A DNA stretch of 25,090 bases from the NCBI GenBank assembly GCA_964505465.1, contig CAZDIG010000003.1, forward strand, positions 1 through 25,090, written 5' to 3'. How positions within the stretch are numbered: position 1 is the stretch's first letter; each line of letters begins with the position of its first letter. Of this stretch, positions 360 to 21,225 are shown in pieces. The notes beneath the pieces are model-generated. The model had not been told where the DNA came from. It was given only the letters and a program-made list of their open reading frames with translations, and ran no database searches. The translations under genes were made by a program, and so were the position numbers. The DNA comes from an uncultured Candidatus Saccharibacteria bacterium. GTDB lineage: Bacteria; Patescibacteriota; Minisyncoccia; Minisyncoccales; Staskawiczbacteraceae.

Positions 360-689
360 CTAAAAAGTAAGAGAAATCCAACCAATATTCTCTCCCCAGG
401 CATATCCAGAAAAGTTGCCTTTAGAATCAATGGCTACTTGGCTATGGGTTGGATTGAAGTTGAGCCATCCTCCGTTTTCTGACCAGGCGTAACCGGATAG
501 ATTTCCTTCTCCGTCATTGGCGACCTTGTAATTATTATCACCGCAAGTATTGGTGTTTGAGCAATTCAGGGAAATCCAACCGATGTTTTCTCCCCAGACG
601 TAACCTGTTAACTCCGTGTCAGCAATCCCAACATTACCGTCAGCGGAGCCAAAATTCAACCATCCTCCATTTTCTGACCAGGCGTATAC
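360..689 (-). repeat. Tandem duplication (195-bp period) encoding YAWSENGGWLNF...GY(V/A)WGENIGWISL twice
   Basis: 27-nt segments 465-491 and 660-686 differ at one position. The protein units are evident in the translation. Confidence 0.85.
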
Positions 690-3600
690 TCTAATACTAA
701 CCGCATCCGATTTTTTGGTATCTGTATTTCCATAGTTATCTTTACCCGTAACGATGCATTTCCATTGCTCATTTAAAGACAGTTTTTCAGATTCAATATT
801 ACCCTGAAATGAGGTTGAGGCGGGCATTCCATTTTCTACGGGAATATCGGTTTCATCATCTTCTATCCAGTAAATCCAACTTTCTCCTCCGTCCACGCTT
901 TTCTCCCAGGTAACATCAGCTGTTAAAACATCTCCTTCATCCGGGTCATAAATCGTAAAGTTACAAATTAAAGTGTCGTCTGTGGCGGGCTCAAGCGGGG
1001 TAATATGGGTCTCGTCAACCGTCGTGGAAATCTCGGTAATATTTATTGTGGCAGTTTTTTCGGATGGTAAAAGATCTTTCTGCACATCGCCCAGATAAGA
1101 GGCTTTTAAGTTGTGATTCCCTATTGACGCTGTAAGCGGTATTGAATAATTGATTTGGGCGACTCCCGAAGAGTTAGTGATAGCGGAACCGATAGCCACA
1201 TTGTCGGTTTCGTCCTTAAAGGAGATGGTTTCTTCAGCGATGGGTGTTCCGGATTCATACTTTAAGGTGGCGGAGAGGGAGACTTCACTTCCTGCGGTGG
1301 CGGAGGCGGGAGCGGTGAAGGGATCAATCTGGGTGGGAATCTCGGTAATATTTATTGTGGCAGTTTTTTCGGATGGTAAAAGATCTTTCTGCACATCGCC
1401 CAGATAAGAGGCTTTTAAGTTGTGATTCCCTATTGATGTTGTAAGCGGTATTGAATAGTTGATTGTCGCCACCCCGGAAGCATTGGTGACAGCGGAGCCA
1501 ATATTGGTACCGGAGGTCTCGTCCCTGAAAGAGATGGTTTCGCCGGAGATGGGATTACCAGAGGATTCATATTTGAGGGTGGCGGAAAGGGAGACAGTAC
1601 TGTTTACCGTGGCCTGGGCTGGAGCAGTGAAGGGATCTATTTTGGTGGGGTTTCCTTTAGTAGAGATTTCCACACAGATTGTATAATTATTAGTCTTTAC
1701 GCAGTTTCCAAAACTAGTCACGATCATCGTCGTCGTCTTATCTGAAGCTAAGGTGGATTTCTGGGCGTTGCCCGCATAGCTCGCTTTTAAAGTGTGGCTG
1801 CCTACAATAGCACCAAGCCCTATCGTATAATTTATCGTAGCTACACCCGAAGTATTAGTAATAGCGGAGCCGATAGCAACATTGTCGGTCTCGTCCCTGA
1901 AAGAGATGGTCTCGCCGGAGATGGGCGTACCTGATTCATACTTGAGGGTGGCAGAAAGGGAAACCTGGCTCCCTGCAGTTGCGGAGGCCGGAGCGGTGAA
2001 GGGATTAATCTCAGTGTTACCGCCGAGTGAAGCAGAAATATCTACACAGAGAGTAGAACCATTATAAGTATTACAATCCCCTATACTAGTTACGTTCATC
2101 GTGGCTGTCTTTTCCGACGCTAAAGTAGCTTTCTGGGTGTTGCCTGCGTAGGAAGCTTTTAAGGTGTGGTTGCCTACGGTGGCGCCCAGGGAGATTTTGT
2201 AGTTGATGGTGGCTATTCCGGAAGCATTGGTGACAGCGGAGCCAATATTGGTACCGGAGGTCTCGTCCCTGAAAGAGATGGTCTCGCCGGAGATGGGCGT
2301 ACCTGATTCATACTTTAAGGTGGCGGAGAGAGAGACTGAACTTCCTGCGGTGGCGGAGGAAGGAGCGGTGAAGGGATCAATTTGGGTGGGAATCTTAGTG
2401 ACATTCATTGCCGCAGTCTTTTCAGAGGGTAAGAGATCTTGTTGGACATTACCTAAATAAGAAACTTTTAATGTGTGACTGCCGATAGTTGCAGTAAGAG
2501 GTATTGAATAGTTGATTGTCGCCGCTCCCGAGGCATTGGTGGTGGCGGAGCCAATAGTAATATTGTCGGTTTCGTCTCGGAAGGAAACGGTCTCTCCAAT
2601 AATGGGCAATCCTGATTCATCATATTTGAGGGTGGCAGAAAGAGACACGGTGGTGCCGGCTTGGGTTTCAGAAGGAACGGTGAAGGGGTTAATTTGGGTG
2701 GCGTCACCGCTAATATCTACTGTCGCTGTTTTTTCAGAGGGCAGTGTGGATTTTGGAAAACTACCCAGATAATTTGCTTTTAAGGTGTGGGTTCCAATGG
2801 AAGCACCAAAAGAAACTTGGTAGTTTATCGTTGCTACTCCTGAGGAGTTGGTGGTGGCGGAGCCAATGGTGATGTTGTCGGTTTCATCTCGGAAGGAGAT
2901 GGTTTCTCCAGAGATAGGCGTACCCGAGTCATACTTTAAGGTAGCGGAGAGGGAAACCTGGCTTCCTGCGGTGGCGGAGGAAGGAACGGTGAAGGGATCA
3001 ATTTGAGTGGAAATTTGAGTTACATTTATTGTGGCTGTTTTATCAGAAGGCAAGAGGGACTTTTGTGGATTACCCATATAGCTTGCTTTTAAGACGTGGT
3101 CCCCTATTATTGTCCCAAGAGGAATTGAGTAGTTAATAGTTGCTACCCCCGAGGAGTTGGTGATGGCGCTGTAAGTTGTACCACCATAGTTATACAAATC
3201 TGAAATTTCTGTTTGAGTTAGGGCTCGGTTGTAGATACGAACTTCGTCAAGAAAACCGTTGAGAGGGTCCCAACTCCCGGGTCTTCGTGCAAAAACCACA
3301 CTAGCCGTACTGGCTGGTAAAATTCCGGAGGCCGTATCCGATGCCACTAAAGTGTCACCAACATATCCTTTTCGTCCAACCCCGTTTTTATAAGTTACTG
3401 TTATCATTCTCCATGTATTTAAAGCCGATGGTATATCAAAATCTAATGACCAAGTAGTTAAACTTTCGTTACTCCAGTGTATTCTTGTGGTTGACCCCGG
3501 GTAAAAACCAAACCACCAAGCTCTTGGACTATCTCCTTTGTGAGATATTGGAGCCCAGTTAGCTTTAGCAACATTAAGTTTAACCCAAGCTGTAATAGTA

Positions 3601-4760
3601 ATTTCACTAGACGGATTAAGAGAAAAATTATTGGGTACTTCAATATAATCGTCCGACCCGTCAAAACTCAAAGCTTTATTAAACTTTCCATCAACCCAGG
3701 TGGGCGCATTAGATGGACAACTTGGTTTTAGAGTTCCGTGGTTAGCGTTTACACTTTGATCGTTGGCCTGACATCCTTCGCCTTCATTTAAGGGCCAGCT
3801 TCCTACTATTGACGAATCTCCAACTGTTCCTCCAGCAGTAGTATCGGTAAAAAATATTGTTTCATTGGCTATTGGAGTTCCGTTTTCATACTTTAAGGTG
3901 GCGGAGAGAGGAATTTGGCTTCCCGCGACGGCCGAGGCGGGAGCGGTAAAGGGATCAATTTTAGTAGCATCTCCTAAAGCTGTTATATCTACACAAACGA
4001 TATATCCTTCTGGGGTTATGTCGCAGTTAATAGCGGATGTCCTGATTATGATATTGTCATAACAATAAGAGCTTTGGTCGTTGTTATCCATCAACTCTAC
4101 CCAAACCTCTTGGGGTCCTTCAAAAGGGAAAATCCAAGACTTGGTTTTAGATGTAGCGTCCCAGTCGCCTAAAGACACATCCCAATCAAACCAATCTGTC
4201 CACATTCTGGTTAAAAACCCGTCCTGGGAATCGTCGCTGGCGAAGCGGACTTTGACGATTCCTCTGTCATCGGAAGACGCACCCACGCTAATAGAGATTA
4301 TTTCACCCTCGTAGGCAAAATGGGGAACGTTAATTAAACAATTTGGTGGCCTGTCTCCGCCAATTGTAAAACTACCGACGTCAGTTAAATCCCGCCGGAA
4401 ACCTATTTTATCTACAGCAAAAATATCTACAGTATAAATACCGTCGGAATAGCCGGCGGTTGAAAGTATCCCGCCGTATAGATTATCGCCCGTTCCGCCA
4501 TCTTCATGAGCTCCGTCGTCATATAATACCACCCTCTCTAATTCTTTTTTCTGCGAATCTCTTATTATTGCCACCACAGTATGGATTCCAGAAACATCGG
4601 TGGCCACAGCAGTAATTCTTACCATCTCGCCTATTTGGGAAATATTTATATTCGTTATATCCGGCTCCGGATAGGGCGCAATTTCAAAACTCGGCCCTTG
4701 AGAAAAAACAGGTCCGGCGACGAGAAAAGATAATAAAATATATAAAAGATATTTTTTCAC
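360..4760 (-). CDS. 1466-aa secreted surface protein / putative pilus-associated adhesin (signal peptide, Ig-like domains, LamG domain, 7 Ig-like repeats, C-terminal GYAWSEN-type repeats)
   Basis: GTG start and signal peptide MKKYLLYILLSFLVAGPVFS. LamG/concanavalin motifs WPLNEG, ALSFDGSDDY, ITITAWVK, LDEVRIYNRALT. Seven ~103-aa T/S/G-rich repeats. Last gene of the minor-pilin operon. The ORF is solid; the function is inferred. Confidence 0.85.
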   Translation of the reverse strand: MKKYLLYILLSFLVAGPVFSQGPSFEIAPYPEPDITNINISQIGEMVRITAVATDVSGIHTVVAIIRDSQKKELERVVLYDDGAHEDGGTGDNLYGGILSTAGYSDGIYTVDIFAVDKIGFRRDLTDVGSFTIGGDRPPNCLINVPHFAYEGEIISISVGASSDDRGIVKVRFASDDSQDGFLTRMWTDWFDWDVSLGDWDATSKTKSWIFPFEGPQEVWVELMDNNDQSSYCYDNIIIRTSAINCDITPEGYIVCVDITALGDATKIDPFTAPASAVAGSQIPLSATLKYENGTPIANETIFFTDTTAGGTVGDSSIVGSWPLNEGEGCQANDQSVNANHGTLKPSCPSNAPTWVDGKFNKALSFDGSDDYIEVPNNFSLNPSSEITITAWVKLNVAKANWAPISHKGDSPRAWWFGFYPGSTTRIHWSNESLTTWSLDFDIPSALNTWRMITVTYKNGVGRKGYVGDTLVASDTASGILPASTASVVFARRPGSWDPLNGFLDEVRIYNRALTQTEISDLYNYGGTTYSAITNSSGVATINYSIPLGTIIGDHVLKASYMGNPQKSLLPSDKTATINVTQISTQIDPFTVPSSATAGSQVSLSATLKYDSGTPISGETISFRDETDNITIGSATTNSSGVATINYQVSFGASIGTHTLKANYLGSFPKSTLPSEKTATVDISGDATQINPFTVPSETQAGTTVSLSATLKYDESGLPIIGETVSFRDETDNITIGSATTNASGAATINYSIPLTATIGSHTLKVSYLGNVQQDLLPSEKTAAMNVTKIPTQIDPFTAPSSATAGSSVSLSATLKYESGTPISGETISFRDETSGTNIGSAVTNASGIATINYKISLGATVGNHTLKASYAGNTQKATLASEKTATMNVTSIGDCNTYNGSTLCVDISASLGGNTEINPFTAPASATAGSQVSLSATLKYESGTPISGETISFRDETDNVAIGSAITNTSGVATINYTIGLGAIVGSHTLKASYAGNAQKSTLASDKTTTMIVTSFGNCVKTNNYTICVEISTKGNPTKIDPFTAPAQATVNSTVSLSATLKYESSGNPISGETISFRDETSGTNIGSAVTNASGVATINYSIPLTTSIGNHNLKASYLGDVQKDLLPSEKTATINITEIPTQIDPFTAPASATAGSEVSLSATLKYESGTPIAEETISFKDETDNVAIGSAITNSSGVAQINYSIPLTASIGNHNLKASYLGDVQKDLLPSEKTATINITEISTTVDETHITPLEPATDDTLICNFTIYDPDEGDVLTADVTWEKSVDGGESWIYWIEDDETDIPVENGMPASTSFQGNIESEKLSLNEQWKCIVTGKDNYGNTDTKKSDAVSIRVYAWSENGGWLNFGSADGNVGIADTELTGYVWGENIGWISLNCSNTNTCGDNNYKVANDGEGNLSGYAWSENGGWLNFNPTHSQVAIDSKGNFSGYAWGENIGWISLTF
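1032..3971 (-). repeat. Seven intragenic Ig-like repeats of 309-312 bp (R7 1032-1340, R6 1341-1652, R5 ~1713-2021, R4 2085-2393, R3 2394-2705, R2 2706-3014, R1 split 3015-3170 + 3837-3971)
   Basis: Recurring consensus TxI(D/N)PFT(A/V)P..A.AG..VSLSATLKY.SG.PI.GETISF.DET...IGSA.TN.SG.A.INY.I......G.H.LKA.Y.G......L.S.KTA..N.T. A 99-bp exact DNA identity links 1029-1127 and 1338-1436. Confidence 0.92.
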
Positions 4761-16788: not shown

Positions 16789-16878
16789 GGAGGAGTGGCC
16801 CAATGGCACGGCAGGAGATTGCTAATCTCCGAGGGTGTAAAAAGCCCTCTGTGGGTTCGAGTCCCACCTCCTCCGCCA
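16789..16878 (+). tRNA. tRNA-Ser(GCT), CCA encoded
   Basis: Acceptor GGAGGAG/CTCCTCC, anticodon arm GGAGA-TTGCTAA-TCTCC, long variable arm, T arm GTGGG-TTCGAGT-CCCAC, G73-CCA. Confidence 0.93.
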
Positions 16879-16918: not shown

Positions 16919-16946
16919 AAAAATCGCCCTTTTTGGGCGATTTTTT
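16919..16946 (+). terminator. Intrinsic terminator after tRNA-Ser(GCT)
   Basis: AAAAATCGCCC-TTTTT-GGGCGATTTTTT. Confidence 0.8.
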
Positions 16947-17035
16947 GTCTATGCAAAGGCTTGACGAAATCCTATATAATCTGTATGGTAATAATAGCAC
17001 ACCGAGAATGGTTTTCGGTTTTAACAATTAAATAG

Positions 17036-17042
17036 AAAGGAG
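17036..17042 (+). promoter_or_regulatory. Strong Shine-Dalgarno site of the radical SAM gene
   Basis: AAAGGAG 9 nt before the ATG at 17052. Confidence 0.75.
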
Positions 17043-17051
17043 AAGTGAACC

Positions 17052-18161
17052 ATGAGAAAAGATCTCGTAAAAGAGAATATAGCGTCTTCTTGTTATTTTA
17101 GATCTTCTGTTATCGCGCCACATCGCAAAGCTTTATTGCAAATTACGGAACGATGCAATCTGCACTGTTCCCATTGTTTTCTTTCGGCTGGTGATTATGG
17201 CAGAACTATGTCTTTCGATGTCATCCAAGATACAGTAATTCCAAGATTACAGTCTTGCAGAGTGATTGGCGTTACATTGACTGGTGGAGAGCCATTTATC
17301 CACCCAGACATTATTAGAATAGCACGTTTGTTTAAAAGTAATAGCATTCGTGTTGGTATTTGTAGTAATGGGTCTGCAATTACTACAGAACAGATAAAAT
17401 CGTTGGTTGAAATCGGTGATATTCATGTGAATGTAAGTCTTGATGGTTTTACTCCTGCGAGCCACGGAAAATTCCGTGGGGATGAGGATTCTTTTGATAA
17501 AACAATTGATGGGATCCGCCGATTGGGCAAACATCATTTACTTCGGGGAATATTGGTTACCCCCAATAATTTTGCAGAGGCAAATGAATATGTAGATATT
17601 TGCGAATTTGCGATCGAAAATGGCGCTAGCTATGTTCTTATAAATCCTTTAGCCAGTATGGGTAGAGGAACGAAATCAAAAGACAAACTCGGTTCTCCGG
17701 ATATAATGATGAGAAAAATTCAGGAGCTTACTAGTCCGTTTAGCGATCGTATTCAAATTGTTTATGTTAGATTTCCCAATGATCGTAAGTTTCCCTTAGG
17801 AGGATGTGAGGCGGGGAGTATAATTTACGTTTTCACTTCTGGGAATGTTGTTATTTGTCCATATTTGGTTTTTGCTTCTAGGACTCCGCAGAGTAGGCAC
17901 AAAGAAGAAGAATTTATTATTGGAAATATCTTCTCTGATGCCGATATCAACGATAAGGTTGATACTTATAGATTTCATGAAAAATACCACACGGGAAATA
18001 ATCCCATTTGTAGTAGTTGTTCAATCAATCTGCAATGCGGAAAAGGTTGTCCTGCTGCAGTTATTGCTTCAGGTGGAATAATTGGGACAGTAGATGAAGA
18101 TATATGCCCGATTGAAACCACAAAGGAAGACAAGGTTGAAGAAGGTAAGTCTAATGTCTAG
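17052..18161 (+). CDS. Radical SAM enzyme with C-terminal SPASM domain
   Basis: CNLHCSHC (CxxxCxxC), LTGGEPF, CSNG, VSLDG, and seven SPASM-type Cys (GCEAG, ICPY, CSSC, QCGKGC, DICP). Confidence 0.92.
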   Translation: MRKDLVKENIASSCYFRSSVIAPHRKALLQITERCNLHCSHCFLSAGDYGRTMSFDVIQDTVIPRLQSCRVIGVTLTGGEPFIHPDIIRIARLFKSNSIRVGICSNGSAITTEQIKSLVEIGDIHVNVSLDGFTPASHGKFRGDEDSFDKTIDGIRRLGKHHLLRGILVTPNNFAEANEYVDICEFAIENGASYVLINPLASMGRGTKSKDKLGSPDIMMRKIQELTSPFSDRIQIVYVRFPNDRKFPLGGCEAGSIIYVFTSGNVVICPYLVFASRTPQSRHKEEEFIIGNIFSDADINDKVDTYRFHEKYHTGNNPICSSCSINLQCGKGCPAAVIASGGIIGTVDEDICPIETTKEDKVEEGKSNV

Positions 18162-18768
18162 GCAAGACGGTTTGTTCGTTGTTTTCGATGGCCCTAATGG
18201 CGTCGGGAAGACAACGCTGGTAAACGAAGTAGCAACTCAATTGCGACAGCAAGGATATAATGTCCTTGCAACAAAGGAACCAACCAGGTCGCCCCTCGGA
18301 CAGTTTGTCCGCAATGCCGAAGAAAAATGTCGAGGTAAAACTCTAGCTTATTTAGTGGCCGCTGATAGGCAATTTCATCTTGAACAGGAAATATTGCCAG
18401 CATTAGATAGGGGAATGATTGTCCTTTCGGATAGGTATATTCCGTCATCTCTTGTTCTTCAATAATTAGATGGAGTACATTTGGAATTTATCTGGTCTCT
18501 TAATAATCAATTCCGCATTCCTGATTTAACCGTTATCTTAATTGCTTCGCCAGAAACGCTTATTTATCGCTTGAGTAGTAGGCATGAATTGAGCCGTTTT
18601 GAAAAGGAGCAACTTTCTGTTAGAGAAGTAGAACTATATTTGAATGCGATAGAATTCTTACGGATAAAAGGTTTTAACGTTCTTTTCACAGAGAATAACG
18701 GTAAAACTTCTATTGATCGGGTTACTACATTAATAATCGAAGAAATTTTGAAATATATACCCCACTAA
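18154..18768 (+). pseudogene. tmk: Thymidylate (dTMP) kinase homologue interrupted by one in-frame TAA at 18463-18465
   Basis: The ATG at 18154 overlaps the rSAM stop. Motifs DGPNGVGKTT, TKEP, AADR and DRYIPSS are intact. Codon 104 is TAA and the same frame continues (LDGVHLEFIW...PDLTVIL...RL) to the TAA at 18768. Confidence 0.88.
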
Positions 18769-18803
18769 AATAAGACAGTTGTCTTTATTGGTGGGGATTT
18801 TTT
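18760..18803 (+). terminator. Putative terminator after the kinase gene
   Basis: CCCCAC...GTGGGG stem enclosing AATAAGACA/TGTCTTTATT, followed by ATTTTTT. Confidence 0.55.
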
Positions 18804-18835
18804 ATTGTATAATACATTAATCAACTCGTAAAATT

Positions 18836-19579
18836 ATGAAATTTTCCTTATTCTGTTGGAACATCGCAAATCCCTCAGAGGAGCGCGCAGTTAAGCAAGG
18901 TGAGTGGCTTCGGAAACGTTCTGAAAGCGTTTTTGTTTTAACTGAAACAAAAAACAGTAAGGGTTGTCTTTTTTTAGAAAAATATTTTCGGGCATATGGT
19001 TTCAACGTTGCTTTTTCTAAGCCCAAAGGCAAAGAATATGGAGTCATGATTATAAGTAAACATCCCTTGCAAGAAAGCGATTTTTCTAATTCGATTAATT
19101 TTCTTAAGGCTCGGATAGCGGCCACTAAGATAAATTTTAGTGGCAAGGTATTGGAAGTAATTGGGACATATGTTCCTTCTCGGGATGTTAGCCAAGAAAA
19201 AATTAAAAAAAAGAAACGCTTCTTAAAGATTTTGCAAGAAACATTAAATAAATCTTTATTTTCAAATACACGAGTTTTTTGCGGAGATTTTAATGTTTTA
19301 GAACCAGACCATAATCCCCATTATCGATTTTTTGAGAAATGGGAATATGATTTCTACCAGTGCTTTAATAATCATCAATTAGTTGATTCTTTCCGGCATT
19401 TGAATCCCAATAGTCGGGAATATAGTTGGGTTGGTCGGACTGGAGATGGCTATAGGTATGACCACTGTTTTATTTCGAATGATCTCTTGCCATCGCTTAA
19501 GGGTTGTTATTATCTTCACGAACCAAGAGAAAAAAGATTAAGCGATCACTCTGCCATTGTTATGGAATTGGGTGTATAA
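18836..19579 (+). CDS. Endonuclease/exonuclease/phosphatase (ExoIII / AP-endonuclease-like)
   Basis: WNI, VLTET, YVP, GDFN, DSFR, YSW, YRYDH and SDH catalytic motifs. Confidence 0.9.
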   Translation: MKFSLFCWNIANPSEERAVKQGEWLRKRSESVFVLTETKNSKGCLFLEKYFRAYGFNVAFSKPKGKEYGVMIISKHPLQESDFSNSINFLKARIAATKINFSGKVLEVIGTYVPSRDVSQEKIKKKKRFLKILQETLNKSLFSNTRVFCGDFNVLEPDHNPHYRFFEKWEYDFYQCFNNHQLVDSFRHLNPNSREYSWVGRTGDGYRYDHCFISNDLLPSLKGCYYLHEPREKRLSDHSAIVMELGV

Positions 19580-19602
19580 TTTTAATAAACAACAGTAACA
19601 AT

Positions 19603-20181
19603 ATGAATAATATTGAGATTGAAATTCAAGTTAATATCGGGAAGAAAAAGCCATTGGCATCTTTTCTAGAGAAGAATGCTGTTTTTCAAAAAGAAAGCCA
19701 TCAGGTAGATGAATATTTCTCTCCAAGCCATAAAAACTTTATAGAAACGCGGCCAATAAAAGAATGGCTTAGATTAAGAGACTCAGATGGCAGGTATTTT
19801 GTAACTTATAAAAACTATCATTATGACAAAAATGGGAAGAGCACTCACTGCGATGAATACGAAACAAATGTAGGAGATATAGGTAAATTAAAGAAAACGT
19901 GGAATGCTTTGAATTTTAGGTCTCTTGTTGTTGTCGATAAAATACGGAAGACTTGGGCATATAAAAACTATGAGATTTCAATTGATTCCGTAAAGAATTT
20001 AGGGGATTTTGTAGAAATTGAATATATTGGTGAAAATAAAAGAATAGATCCTGAAAGGGTTACGAACGAAATGATAAATTTTCTTAAAACTATCGGTTGC
20101 GGGGAAATAAAAAGAAATTATGTTGGTTATCCGTTCCAATTAATGTTCCCAGGTGAGATTGAAAAAGAGATGTGGGTATAG
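19603..20181 (+). CDS. CYTH-family protein (class IV adenylyl cyclase / triphosphatase-like)
   Basis: True start is probably the ATG at 19603. EIEIQ (ExExK variant), QVDEYF, WLRLR, VTYK, EYET, VDKIRKTW and SIDSVKNLGDFVEIE. Confidence 0.88.
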   Translation: MNNIEIEIQVNIGKKKPLASFLEKNAVFQKESHQVDEYFSPSHKNFIETRPIKEWLRLRDSDGRYFVTYKNYHYDKNGKSTHCDEYETNVGDIGKLKKTWNALNFRSLVVVDKIRKTWAYKNYEISIDSVKNLGDFVEIEYIGENKRIDPERVTNEMINFLKTIGCGEIKRNYVGYPFQLMFPGEIEKEMWV

Positions 20182-20301
20182 AACTGCGAGTTCGAATCCT
20201 ACTACCGTCGCGGGAAAATTTAAGAACAAAATTACATAGATGGCACTAGGGCGACCGAACTAGTTCGAATAGAGTCGCCCCCGCCAATTGGGAAAAGCTA
20301 T

Positions 20302-20387
20302 GGAGGGGTGCTCCGAATGGCAAGGAACCAGTCTTGAAAACTGGCGCCCTGAATAAGGGCTTGTGAGTTCGACTCTCACCCCCTCCG
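20302..20387 (+). tRNA. tRNA-Ser(TGA), CCA not encoded
   Basis: Acceptor GGAGGGG/CCCCTCC, anticodon arm CCAGT-CTTGAAA-ACTGG, long variable arm, T arm GTGAG-TTCGACT-CTCAC. Confidence 0.93.
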
Positions 20388-20416
20388 CACTTCGACAAGC
20401 TCAGTGTAAACATTTT

Positions 20417-20489
20417 GCCCTCGTAGTTTAATGGACAAAATGCGAGGTTGCGGACCTCGTGACTGCAGGTTCGATTCCTGCCGAGGGCA
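20417..20489 (+). tRNA. tRNA-Arg(GCG), CCA not encoded
   Basis: Acceptor GCCCTCG/CGAGGGC, anticodon arm CGAGG-TTGCGGA-CCTCG, T arm GCAGG-TTCGATT-CCTGC. Confidence 0.92.
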
Positions 20490-20498
20490 TATAGTAAG

Positions 20499-20571: not shown

Positions 20572-20608
20572 AAAGACCCGCCTGGGATTAAATCCTACGC
20601 GGGTCTTT
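20572..20608. terminator. Bidirectional-looking terminator hairpin downstream of the nitroreductase
   Basis: AAAGACCCGC...GCGGGTCTTT arms plus inner pairing, 14 nt past the nitroreductase stop. Confidence 0.8.
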
Positions 20609-20622
20609 CTATTTTAGTAATT

Positions 20623-21225
20623 TTAAAATCTTTCTTTATGGGTAATACATTTTAGCTCTTTTTTGGGAATATGTAATACGCCTTTTTTATCAAGCCAGTA
20701 TTTTATGCTTCCTTTAAACCCCGTTAGAAATCTTTGATTTTTAAACGGGGTAAATTTTTCTTCAACCGATTTCTGACCGGGGTAACCTAAAGCAATTATG
20801 AATTCAATAATATAATTTTGAGGAATATTTAAAATTTTTGCTAATTTTTCTCGATTCACTGAACCAATTATGCAAGAAGCAATACCTCTTTCAAGGGCAG
20901 TTAAAATAATATTTTCGGCTGCTAATCCTACGTCGTATTTTGCATTTTTGTTAATTTTTTGATTTGATAAGATTACAATATAAGCTACTGGTTTCTCTTT
21001 TTCTTCTGGCGCGCCATCCTTTAAATAGCCAGCCCAGCGAGTACAATTGAAAACTTCATTTAAATTTTTAGTTACCAAAATATATTCCAAGGGCTGCAAA
21101 TTAGCCGAAGAGGGCGCCAGCCTTGCCGCGTTTAAGCAATTAAAGAGAATTGATTTTGCAATTCTTTTTTGTTTAAACTTTCTAATTGTTCTTCTTTTTA
21201 AAATTAGCTTGTAGGTGTCGTTCAT
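20623..21225 (-). CDS. Nitroreductase family FMN-dependent oxidoreductase
   Basis: ILKRRTIRKF, AARLAPSSANLQP, DVGLAAENIILTALERGIASCIIG and IALGYP. Confidence 0.92.
   Translation of the reverse strand: MNDTYKLILKRRTIRKFKQKRIAKSILFNCLNAARLAPSSANLQPLEYILVTKNLNEVFNCTRWAGYLKDGAPEEKEKPVAYIVILSNQKINKNAKYDVGLAAENIILTALERGIASCIIGSVNREKLAKILNIPQNYIIEFIIALGYPGQKSVEEKFTPFKNQRFLTGFKGSIKYWLDKKGVLHIPKKELKCITHKERF
20718..20751. repeat. 34-bp palindromic element inserted in frame in the nitroreductase
   Basis: ACCCCGTT...AACGGGGT arms flanked by a 2-bp AA duplication, encoding TPFKNQRFLTGF. Confidence 0.6.

Follow-up and report, generated by a model that had tools for sequence, protein, structure and literature searches.

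A conserved radical-SAM/SPASM, kinase and ExoIII-like nuclease cassette inserted in a tRNA gene cluster of a Candidatus Saccharibacteria bacterium and its possible role in deoxynucleotide chemistry

To our knowledge, radical-SAM chemistry on nucleotides has so far been described mainly for viperin, MoaA, QueE and a few enzymes of nucleoside antibiotic synthesis. Non-standard deoxynucleotides are handled by short enzymatic routes such as dUTPase–ThyA–Tmk and, in phage T4, gp56–gp42–gp1. At DNA ends, ExoIII and APE1 remove 3'-blocking groups. Here we describe a block of genes in which these activities seem to meet. It lies in a stretch of 25,090 nucleotides from the groundwater-derived genome of an uncultured Candidatus Saccharibacteria bacterium (Patescibacteria; assembly GCA_964505465.1, contig CAZDIG010000003.1, positions 1 to 25,090), the whole of which is called the window below. 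Four co-oriented genes on the forward strand are situated between tRNA-Ser(GCT) (16789–16878; ARAGORN, Rfam tRNA 53.7 bits) and tRNA-Ser(TGA) (20302–20388; ARAGORN, Rfam). They encode a radical-SAM/SPASM enzyme of 369 residues (17052–18161; Pfam Radical_SAM), a thymidylate-kinase-like kinase (18154–18768), an ExoIII/APE1-type nuclease of the endonuclease/exonuclease/phosphatase (EEP) family with 247 residues (18836–19579; Pfam Exo_endo_phos, TIGR00633 xth) and a CYTH protein, or triphosphate tunnel metalloenzyme, of 192 residues (19603–20181; Pfam CYTH, TIGR00318). A first-pass annotation of the window had placed the four genes exactly between the two tRNA genes and had proposed nucleotide chemistry as their theme; both the placement and the theme are borne out. 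We are confident that the cassette is a real, conserved and nucleotide-centred module. It appears to be undescribed so far: no description was found in the full-text literature (most subscription journals lie outside its coverage), in PADLOC or in NCBIfam, and the RefSeq names are generic.

Relatives of the radical-SAM enzyme were collected from one genome per species, which gave 393 proteins; the counts of loci below refer to the best 80. Gene calls in high-GC loci, filtered by the GC content of third codon positions (GC3), are crude, and the architectures were counted by tblastn. The kinase and the EEP gene adjoin the radical-SAM gene in 75 of the 80 loci, and in two of the other five the contig breaks off at the radical-SAM gene. 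Such neighbourhoods had been mentioned for actinomycetes in the first-pass annotation; they are verified here, and the trio co-occurs in several phyla. The loci belong to Patescibacteria, to many Actinomycetota (Streptomyces, Lentzea, Amycolatopsis, Actinosynnema and Kutzneria among them) and to Bacteroidota, and further ones are found on contigs of metagenome-assembled genomes (MAGs) labelled Planctomycetota, Bipolaricaulota, Peribacteria and Melainabacteria. One copy is on the complete chromosome of a Ferruginibacter, and the trio is also present in a Ktedonobacteraceae genome (L236). The gene order is radical-SAM–kinase–EEP in most loci and kinase–radical-SAM–EEP in several Patescibacteria. 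Two whole copies occur on different contigs of one assembly in two cases (L056/L061 and L066/L072; Amycolatopsis sp. NPDC051758 and lyj-109). A linear Streptomyces plasmid of 336 kb (Streptomyces sp. NBC_00690, NZ_CP109010.1, bases 105683–108607) bears the cassette with overlapping stop and start codons, and its genes are named 'radical SAM protein', 'dTMP kinase', 'EEP family protein' and 'MazG-like family protein' in RefSeq. A search from the side of the EEP protein returned 861 homologues, many of which share contigs with radical-SAM matches. If the LysR-type regulator and the enzymes of the fourth position, both described below, are counted as part of the cassette, there are no conserved neighbours outside it.

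The members of the trio have also diverged together. Pairwise distances of the three proteins correlate over 72 loci (Spearman 0.91–0.93, Mantel p ≤ 0.005), and mean pairwise identity is 70% for the radical-SAM enzyme, the most conserved of the three, 57% for the kinase and 56% for the EEP protein. The three genes co-evolve as one unit, and the cassette is mobile, co-inherited and horizontally spread. It is important to note that one of the MAG records, labelled Candidatus Melainabacteria (L053), is a 10.6-kb contig with 67% GC and a Lentzea-like LysR–radical-SAM–kinase–EEP–NUDIX layout, and it is probably a mis-binned actinomycete contig; claims about spread across phyla should therefore rest on complete genomes and long contigs. 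Could housekeeping tmk, xth and CYTH genes have come to lie beside an unrelated radical-SAM gene by chance? PGAP names the kinase 'dTMP kinase (tmk)' and the EEP protein does resemble xth. Chance adjacency is contradicted by the trio in 75 of 80 loci across phyla with its co-evolving distances, by the family-specific motifs that separate the kinase and the EEP protein from housekeeping enzymes, and by the lack of the whole block in 79 syntenic relatives of the window, and we regard it as extremely improbable.

The gene beside the trio is not always the same. The fourth position is held by a NUDIX gene in 51 loci, by a CYTH gene of at least two subtypes in 11, by a small MazG-like pyrophosphohydrolase in 9, all of them Streptomyces-type loci, and by a deoxynucleoside kinase (dNK) in two. 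CYTH, which had been taken for a fixed member in the first-pass annotation, turns out to be one of several interchangeable occupants of this slot. NUDIX, CYTH and MazG proteins have unrelated folds and a common activity, the conversion of a nucleoside triphosphate to the monophosphate, and a dNK reaches the monophosphate from the deoxynucleoside. This non-orthologous displacement is the strongest clue to function: repeated replacement among three folds with a common activity indicates that the pathway depends on the supply of a (deoxy)nucleoside monophosphate or on keeping its triphosphate in check. The CYTH protein of the window scores 64.7 bits against Pfam CYTH and 97.2 bits against TIGR00318 (cut-off 57.95), and its nearest solved structure is the triphosphate tunnel metalloenzyme of Sulfolobus acidocaldarius (SaTTM, 7ns8). 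Its CYTH motif reads E5-I-E7-I-Q9, while ExExK is found in all 11 other cassette CYTH proteins.

The radical-SAM enzyme has the core motif CX3CX2C as C35/C39/C42 (CNLHCSHC), and C252, C269, C320, C323, C329, C333 and C352 fit the SPASM pattern CX9-16GX4C ... CX2CX5CX3C ... C. In 104 aligned family members six of the SPASM cysteines are invariant (104/104), and C352 is present in at least 90% of the 104 and invariant in a set of 20 sequences; the alignment bears out the seven-cysteine SPASM domain of the first-pass annotation, a full domain of the two-cluster type. Both the radical-SAM and the EEP protein of the window keep every family-invariant residue. When 1.84 billion representative proteins were searched, the family members scored 290–497 bits and the next full-length proteins at most 165 bits, and the ten nearest outgroup proteins are themselves outside any assigned family. 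Family members are 55–66% identical across phyla. None of the curated radical-SAM families of NCBIfam (NirJ, AhbD, MftC, ScmF and others) reached its cut-off, the best being NirJ2 with 92 bits against 500, and the matches in NCBIfam, Pfam and PADLOC are generic or partial only. Sequence comparison places the family in a sharply isolated clade of its own, set apart from all other proteins by a wide score gap. The enzyme was rejected as a viperin, in agreement with the first-pass annotation, which had denied that it is a canonical one: the pVip profiles of PADLOC match residues 29–141 only (60 and 41 bits), viperins of known structure in PDB score 25–36 bits over the N-terminal core only, and the full SPASM domain is absent in viperins. 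An AlphaFold model built from 104 sequences has a pLDDT of 81.6 and superposes on SkfB, SuiB, BlsE, CteB, PqqE, DesII and anSME with template-modelling (TM) scores of 0.5–0.7, and the predicted fold is a generic SPASM/twitch one. An earlier model from 20 sequences (pLDDT 58.6) was discarded.

Such a fold raises the question whether the enzyme is a maturase that modifies a neighbour, either the EEP protein or the kinase, in the way anSME acts on sulfatases, the cassette then being an activated nuclease or kinase system. SPASM enzymes are mostly modifiers of proteins and peptides, and SkfB, SuiB, CteB, PqqE and anSME are the closest folds. At the catalytic Tyr of the EEP protein there is also an invariant and family-specific YVPSRD, which we take to resemble the (C/S)xPxR site of sulfatases. 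On the other hand, the radical-SAM enzyme has no domain for recognition of ribosomally synthesized and post-translationally modified peptides (RiPPs), as its core begins near residue 25. No RiPP precursor peptide gene and no conserved small open reading frame were found among the neighbours at the radical-SAM loci. The enzyme occurs without this EEP protein in one locus (L081) and with a different, Xth-type EEP protein in another (L022), and modification of a neighbour would leave the variable pyrophosphatase slot without a role. We consider a maturase function improbable.

The kinase, when its reading frame is read through an internal stop codon, scores 124.7 bits against TIGR00041 (cut-off 83.25) and 31 bits against VakA of PADLOC ('viperins associated with kinases'). 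It has kept the P-loop Lys, the DRY Arg, the equivalents of Arg74 and Arg95 and the LID arginines. In the dTMP kinase of Mycobacterium tuberculosis, the carboxylate of the P-loop residue Asp9 binds the ribose hydroxyl of dTMP and Phe70 stacks on thymine (PMC3619541). In the cassette family the position of Asp9 is Gly (Asn in the window) and the position of Phe70 is Cys (Val in the window); AYQ is changed to VLQ. These replacements suggest that the substrate is probably something other than plain dTMP.

In the window the kinase is a pseudogene or a split gene, as its frame is broken by an in-frame TAA at 18463–18465. The aligned homologues have Arg or Gly at this position, except three with Ala or Val, and a stop in none, which rules out recoding and makes a nonsense mutation the natural explanation. 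The identical TAA is found in three other assemblies, in a contig collection (L155) and in contigs from a further four sequencing runs on groundwater; all runs with the window sequence are DNA metagenomes kept as contigs. Since every dataset examined has the TAA and no variant was seen, it looks fixed in the population, with a minority allele being possible because contigs drop rare variants. The residues 3' of the TAA still fit the family consensus, which means that either the lesion is recent or the two halves are still functional. The closest relative by identity of the radical-SAM enzyme (65%, L004/L087) has no kinase gene, and neither has L237. The kinase is under loss in this branch. Taken with the Lys to Gln change in the CYTH motif, the nonsense codon points to a local cassette copy that is partly decayed. 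In L237 (3896–6620), a Patescibacteria-like contig, the radical-SAM and EEP genes are followed by a gene for a ThyX (Thy1) thymidylate synthase. A link between ThyX and the cassette was dropped, this being the sole case among the loci examined.

The EEP protein stays below the cut-offs of both families of its kind, with 86.4 bits against TIGR00633 xth (cut-off 99.05) and 91.1 bits against TIGR00195 (cut-off 182.55). The catalytic residues of APE1, namely N68, E96, Y171, D210, N212, D283, D308 and H309, correspond to N9, E37, Y112, D151, N153, D209, D237 and H238 in the window, each of which is kept in at least 95% of the family (52 members aligned). Equivalents of F266 and W280, which form the pocket for apurinic/apyrimidinic (AP) sites in APE1, are kept as well. 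To these the family adds invariant motifs and residues of its own: YVPSRD, GYRYD, R17, W24 and R93. It is likely, judging from these residues, that the protein acts at DNA 3' ends or abasic sites.

Our tentative interpretation is that the cassette is a pathway for a modified deoxynucleotide combined with clean-up at DNA ends, which we hold to be possible and somewhat short of probable. The slot enzyme would deliver a deoxynucleoside monophosphate or, alternatively, limit the triphosphate. The radical-SAM enzyme would use radical chemistry to alter the nucleotide, with the sugar as the most plausible site. Its product would be phosphorylated by the dedicated kinase; alternatively, the kinase would feed the radical-SAM enzyme as CMPK2 feeds viperin. 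The altered sugar pocket of a dedicated kinase suggests phosphorylation of the altered nucleotide and not its destruction. The EEP protein would clear DNA 3' ends or abasic-type sites of abnormal or blocking residues. A non-canonical deoxynucleotide would result and would act against the replication of a competitor or a phage, with the nuclease protecting the producer. By analogy we infer that the slot enzyme (pyrophosphatase or dNK), the modifying enzyme and the kinase would follow one another as in the known routes to non-standard deoxynucleotides. The most attractive form of this interpretation is an antagonistic or antiviral analogue, although we regard it as doubtful. If it is true, the cassette would correspond to viperin but act on DNA: the radical-SAM enzyme would make a hitherto unknown sugar-modified deoxynucleotide, such as a 3'-altered chain terminator for DNA polymerases, a kinase without the carboxylate that binds the 3'-OH would activate it, the pyrophosphatase would gate the pool and the ExoIII-like nuclease would trim blocked 3' ends and so confer immunity. 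We rate this specific scheme, too, as rather doubtful.

Several observations weigh against a modified deoxynucleotide as the product. The substrates of SPASM enzymes are, as said, mostly peptides or proteins, and NUDIX, MazG and ExoIII are also classic enzymes of house-cleaning and repair. The kinase, missing in L004/L087 and L237 and broken in the window, is dispensable in some lineages. One EEP homologue is solitary, with no radical-SAM gene within 5 kb, and some of the cross-phylum MAG records may be mis-binned. Regarding defence, no system of PADLOC-DB v2 matched the cassette, and there were only weak partial matches to the pVip core, to PDC-M51B (43 bits) and to VakA. The EEP and CYTH proteins had no match in PADLOC-DB v2. 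Of the 262 nearest neighbours, the 140 that were examined do not form consistent defence islands; there are scattered restriction-modification methyltransferases, one PglX, one WYL protein and unrelated singletons. Finally, a divergent LysR-type regulator is present in 42 of the 80 loci, almost all in Actinomycetota, and is more in keeping with a metabolic or stress operon than with typical defence genes.

The first-pass annotation had offered the block as a candidate defence system. That link did not find support in PADLOC, in the flanking genes or in phages, and LysR in 42 of 80 loci also counts against a standard defence system. No match to the cassette was found in 50,697 phage genome records. 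IMG/VR holds four true members, all of them in predicted prophage regions of isolate actinomycete genomes and two at the edges of such regions, and a phage origin was rejected. A defence role for the cassette is neither supported nor excluded by our results. As a single case, the cassette in the Ktedonobacteraceae genome (L236, 1–5780) lies directly 3' of genes for a pentapeptide-repeat protein and an NB-ARC/TPR protein of the STAND type. STAND-type NTPases are common in conflict systems.

The regulator and the house-cleaning enzymes could also mean that the genes form an operon for nucleotide-pool sanitation and DNA repair, induced by LysR under stress. A NUDIX, MazG or CYTH protein would hydrolyse a damaged dNTP, the radical-SAM enzyme would repair or convert the damaged monophosphate, or a DNA lesion in the manner of spore photoproduct lyase, the kinase would return the product to the pool and the ExoIII-like nuclease would process the corresponding lesions in DNA. 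MutT-like NUDIX, MazG and ExoIII-type enzymes are typical of such work, the cassette is widespread across genera of Pseudonocardiaceae, and the lack of a consistent link with defence genes agrees with it, as does the divergent LysR gene. However, a normal nucleotide as product would not need a dedicated kinase with altered sugar and base pockets. Two copies in single Amycolatopsis genomes and a patchy spread (roughly 0.2% of species genomes) are unusual for repair genes, and apart from the common core the radical-SAM enzyme does not resemble spore photoproduct lyase. We find sanitation unlikely.

The history of the locus can be followed in relatives of the source organism. A metagenome scan anchored on RecG gave 80 loci, one identical to the window and 79 with a RecG protein 48–76% identical. 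In the relatives PilM and ComF are followed by a pair of tRNA-Ser genes with about 100 nt between them and then by tRNA-Arg and RecG. The pair is 3.4 kb apart in the window, and the radical-SAM, kinase, EEP and CYTH genes are absent at the syntenic tRNA cluster in all 79 relatives, the closest one included (L156; RecG 76%, PilM 89%). The presence or absence of the block at this tRNA locus, which the first-pass annotation had pointed to, is thereby settled: the block is a lineage-specific insertion into a tRNA-Ser/tRNA-Ser/tRNA-Arg cluster, and the two tRNA-Ser genes are its left and right boundaries. The third member of the ancestral cluster is tRNA-Arg(GCG) (20416–20490, forward strand; ARAGORN, Rfam). 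GC3 of the inserted genes is 0.26–0.31 versus about 0.34–0.43 in core genes; with this and the Shine-Dalgarno (SD) motif of the radical-SAM gene they carry a mild foreign signature. There is no integrase gene in the window and no direct repeat that brackets the block. Directly 3' of the CYTH stop codon there is a tRNA-like 3' fragment (GAGTTCGAATCC...; 20186–20212, forward strand), which holds the only GTTCGAATCC 10-mer of the window. This fragment (GAGTTCGAATCCTACTACCGTCGCG) was not called by ARAGORN or Rfam and has no matching 5' half and no direct repeat; it may have been left behind by a disrupted tRNA gene or an old attachment site.

The cluster has taken up other genes in the relatives. 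Unrelated cargo includes an SDR protein, OMP decarboxylase, methyltransferases, a PHP protein, a ZIP transporter and a Band 7 protein, and further a PhoH protein, rubrerythrin, PIN and NYN proteins and a Phd antitoxin; the cargo-bearing regions upstream of RecG are those of L181, L185, L186, L216, L226, L228, L230 and L234. Such miscellaneous cargo indicates a general insertion hotspot that is not specific for defence. In the window a nitroreductase gene (20623–21225, reverse strand) lies between tRNA-Arg and RecG and is absent there in the relatives, in which this distance is usually about 75–130 nt and more where other cargo has been inserted. Its GC3 of 0.26 is the lowest in the window, and the gene was probably inserted in a second event, independently of the cassette. 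An inverted repeat of 18 nt, nearly perfect (20572–20608; 89% complementary, arms 1 nt apart), lies just downstream of its stop codon and is probably its terminator. In most relatives (L156, L161, L162, L167, L168, L170, L172, L175 and others) the tRNA-Ser pair lies opposite to the RecG strand, TGA followed by GCT. In the window the pair is on the RecG strand, GCT followed by TGA, an orientation common to L169, L196, L202, L205 and L207. The pair seems to have been inverted before the cassette was inserted or along with it.

The cassette of the window adjoins the type IV pilus and ComF genes of DNA uptake, and this brings up salvage of deoxynucleotides from foreign or turned-over DNA. The EEP nuclease would release the nucleotides, the radical-SAM enzyme would turn a modified one into a form that can be used, and the Tmk-like kinase or the dNK would re-phosphorylate them. 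Patescibacteria are dependent on salvage, a dNK occupies the fourth slot in two loci, and the ThyX gene lies 3' of the cassette in one. Nevertheless, the proximity to pilus and ComF genes is an accident of insertion, because 79 relatives keep the same synteny without the cassette. Enzymes of the ExoIII type degrade DNA in bulk only poorly, ThyX adjoins the cassette in one locus only, and large free-living actinomycetes that make their own nucleotides also carry the cassette. Salvage has in our opinion little probability. Next to the type IV pilus genes there is also a gene for a protein of 1466 residues (360–4760, reverse strand) with LamG, Big_1, Big_3_5 and CarboxypepD_reg repeats. It is atypical in its GC content (0.45) and in its codon usage, with an L1 distance of 0.52 as compared to about 0.33 for other genes.

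Signals around the four genes were located by consensus scans and RNA folding. A terminator-like hairpin with an 11-bp stem and T/A runs on both sides follows tRNA-Ser(GCT) (16919–16945), and upstream of the radical-SAM gene there is a promoter-like TTGACG-17-TATGGT (16961–16989, forward strand), a pattern match only, with 9 of 12 consensus positions. The SD sequence AAAGGAG (17036–17042, forward strand) is 9 nt 5' of the radical-SAM ATG. The first-pass annotation was correct in calling this site unusual: within 22 nt upstream of the start, an SD-like motif is found in only two of the 23 window genes of at least 100 residues, the radical-SAM gene (AAGGAG) and comF (AAGGA). Judging from these 23 genes, most translation starts of the source organism seem to lack an SD site. 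The start codon of the kinase gene (ATG, 18154) lies 5' of the radical-SAM stop codon TAG (18159–18161), so that the two genes overlap as had been noticed before. An intrinsic-terminator-like hairpin with a U run (18760–18802, forward strand) extends across the kinase stop codon; RNA folding of 18760–18796, which is followed by U6, gave −19.1 kcal/mol (z = −3.6). Upstream of the EEP gene there is an extended −10-like TGTATAAT (18806–18813, forward strand), a sequence pattern only. A strong terminator-like hairpin followed by TGTATAAT means that EEP and CYTH may be transcribed separately in the source organism; the first-pass annotation had read the hairpin and TATAAT in the same way, and both features are there.

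If a non-canonical deoxynucleotide is indeed made or processed by the cassette, this would be new radical-SAM nucleotide chemistry. It could also bring to light a nucleotide analogue of natural origin that is new, along with the kinase dedicated to it and a nuclease for repair of the corresponding 3' ends. Enzymes of this kind are relevant to antiviral and antibiotic research and to enzymology. Should the scheme of a DNA-directed viperin counterpart be true, it would mean a new class of antiviral or antagonistic nucleotide chemistry common to Patescibacteria and actinomycetes. The radical-SAM family is compact (about 360 residues) and very conserved. There are cultivable hosts (Streptomyces, Lentzea and Amycolatopsis), a plasmid copy included, and the question is therefore directly testable. 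For Patescibacteria, the window presents a tiny genome in which a module of this kind was acquired at a tRNA insertion hotspot and has since begun to be lost.

Based on these results the cassette can be compared with the known systems as follows. It is similar to viperin and pVip with their NMP kinases (RSAD2–CMPK2; VakA) in that a radical-SAM gene stands beside a gene for a thymidylate-kinase-family kinase, in the nucleotide theme and in the superposition of the radical-SAM core of the AlphaFold model on viperin structures (Foldseek TMq about 0.50 over roughly 255–300 columns). It is different in the full seven-cysteine SPASM domain, in the restriction of the profile match to residues 29–141 and in the addition of an ExoIII-like nuclease and a pyrophosphatase slot. 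With SPASM/twitch enzymes such as SkfB, SuiB, CteB, PqqE, MftC and anSME, a group that has small-molecule members in BlsE, DesII and NirJ/AhbD, the enzyme shares the CX3CX2C core and the seven-cysteine signature, the best sequence and fold matches being SkfB (90 bits), BlsE (64 bits, TMt 0.69) and anSME (TM 0.63). It differs from them in scoring far below the curated cut-offs, in having neither a RiPP-recognition domain nor a precursor gene and in having nucleotide and DNA enzymes as genomic partners. The EEP protein is similar to ExoIII/APE1 (Xth) in length, in all catalytic residues and in the aromatics of the AP-site pocket, and is distinguished by scores below the xth equivalog cut-offs, by its own invariant motifs and by its co-inheritance with the radical-SAM enzyme. 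The modified-deoxynucleotide routes of phages (T4 dCTPase gp56, dCMP hydroxymethylase gp42 and dNMP kinase gp1) and the route of dUTPase, ThyA/ThyX and Tmk likewise join an NTP pyrophosphatase to an enzyme that works on the monophosphate and to a kinase dedicated to the dNMP, and a nuclease is also present in phages. In the cassette, which is cellular, the modifying enzyme is a radical-SAM/SPASM protein, and the likeness is one of logic and not of homology.

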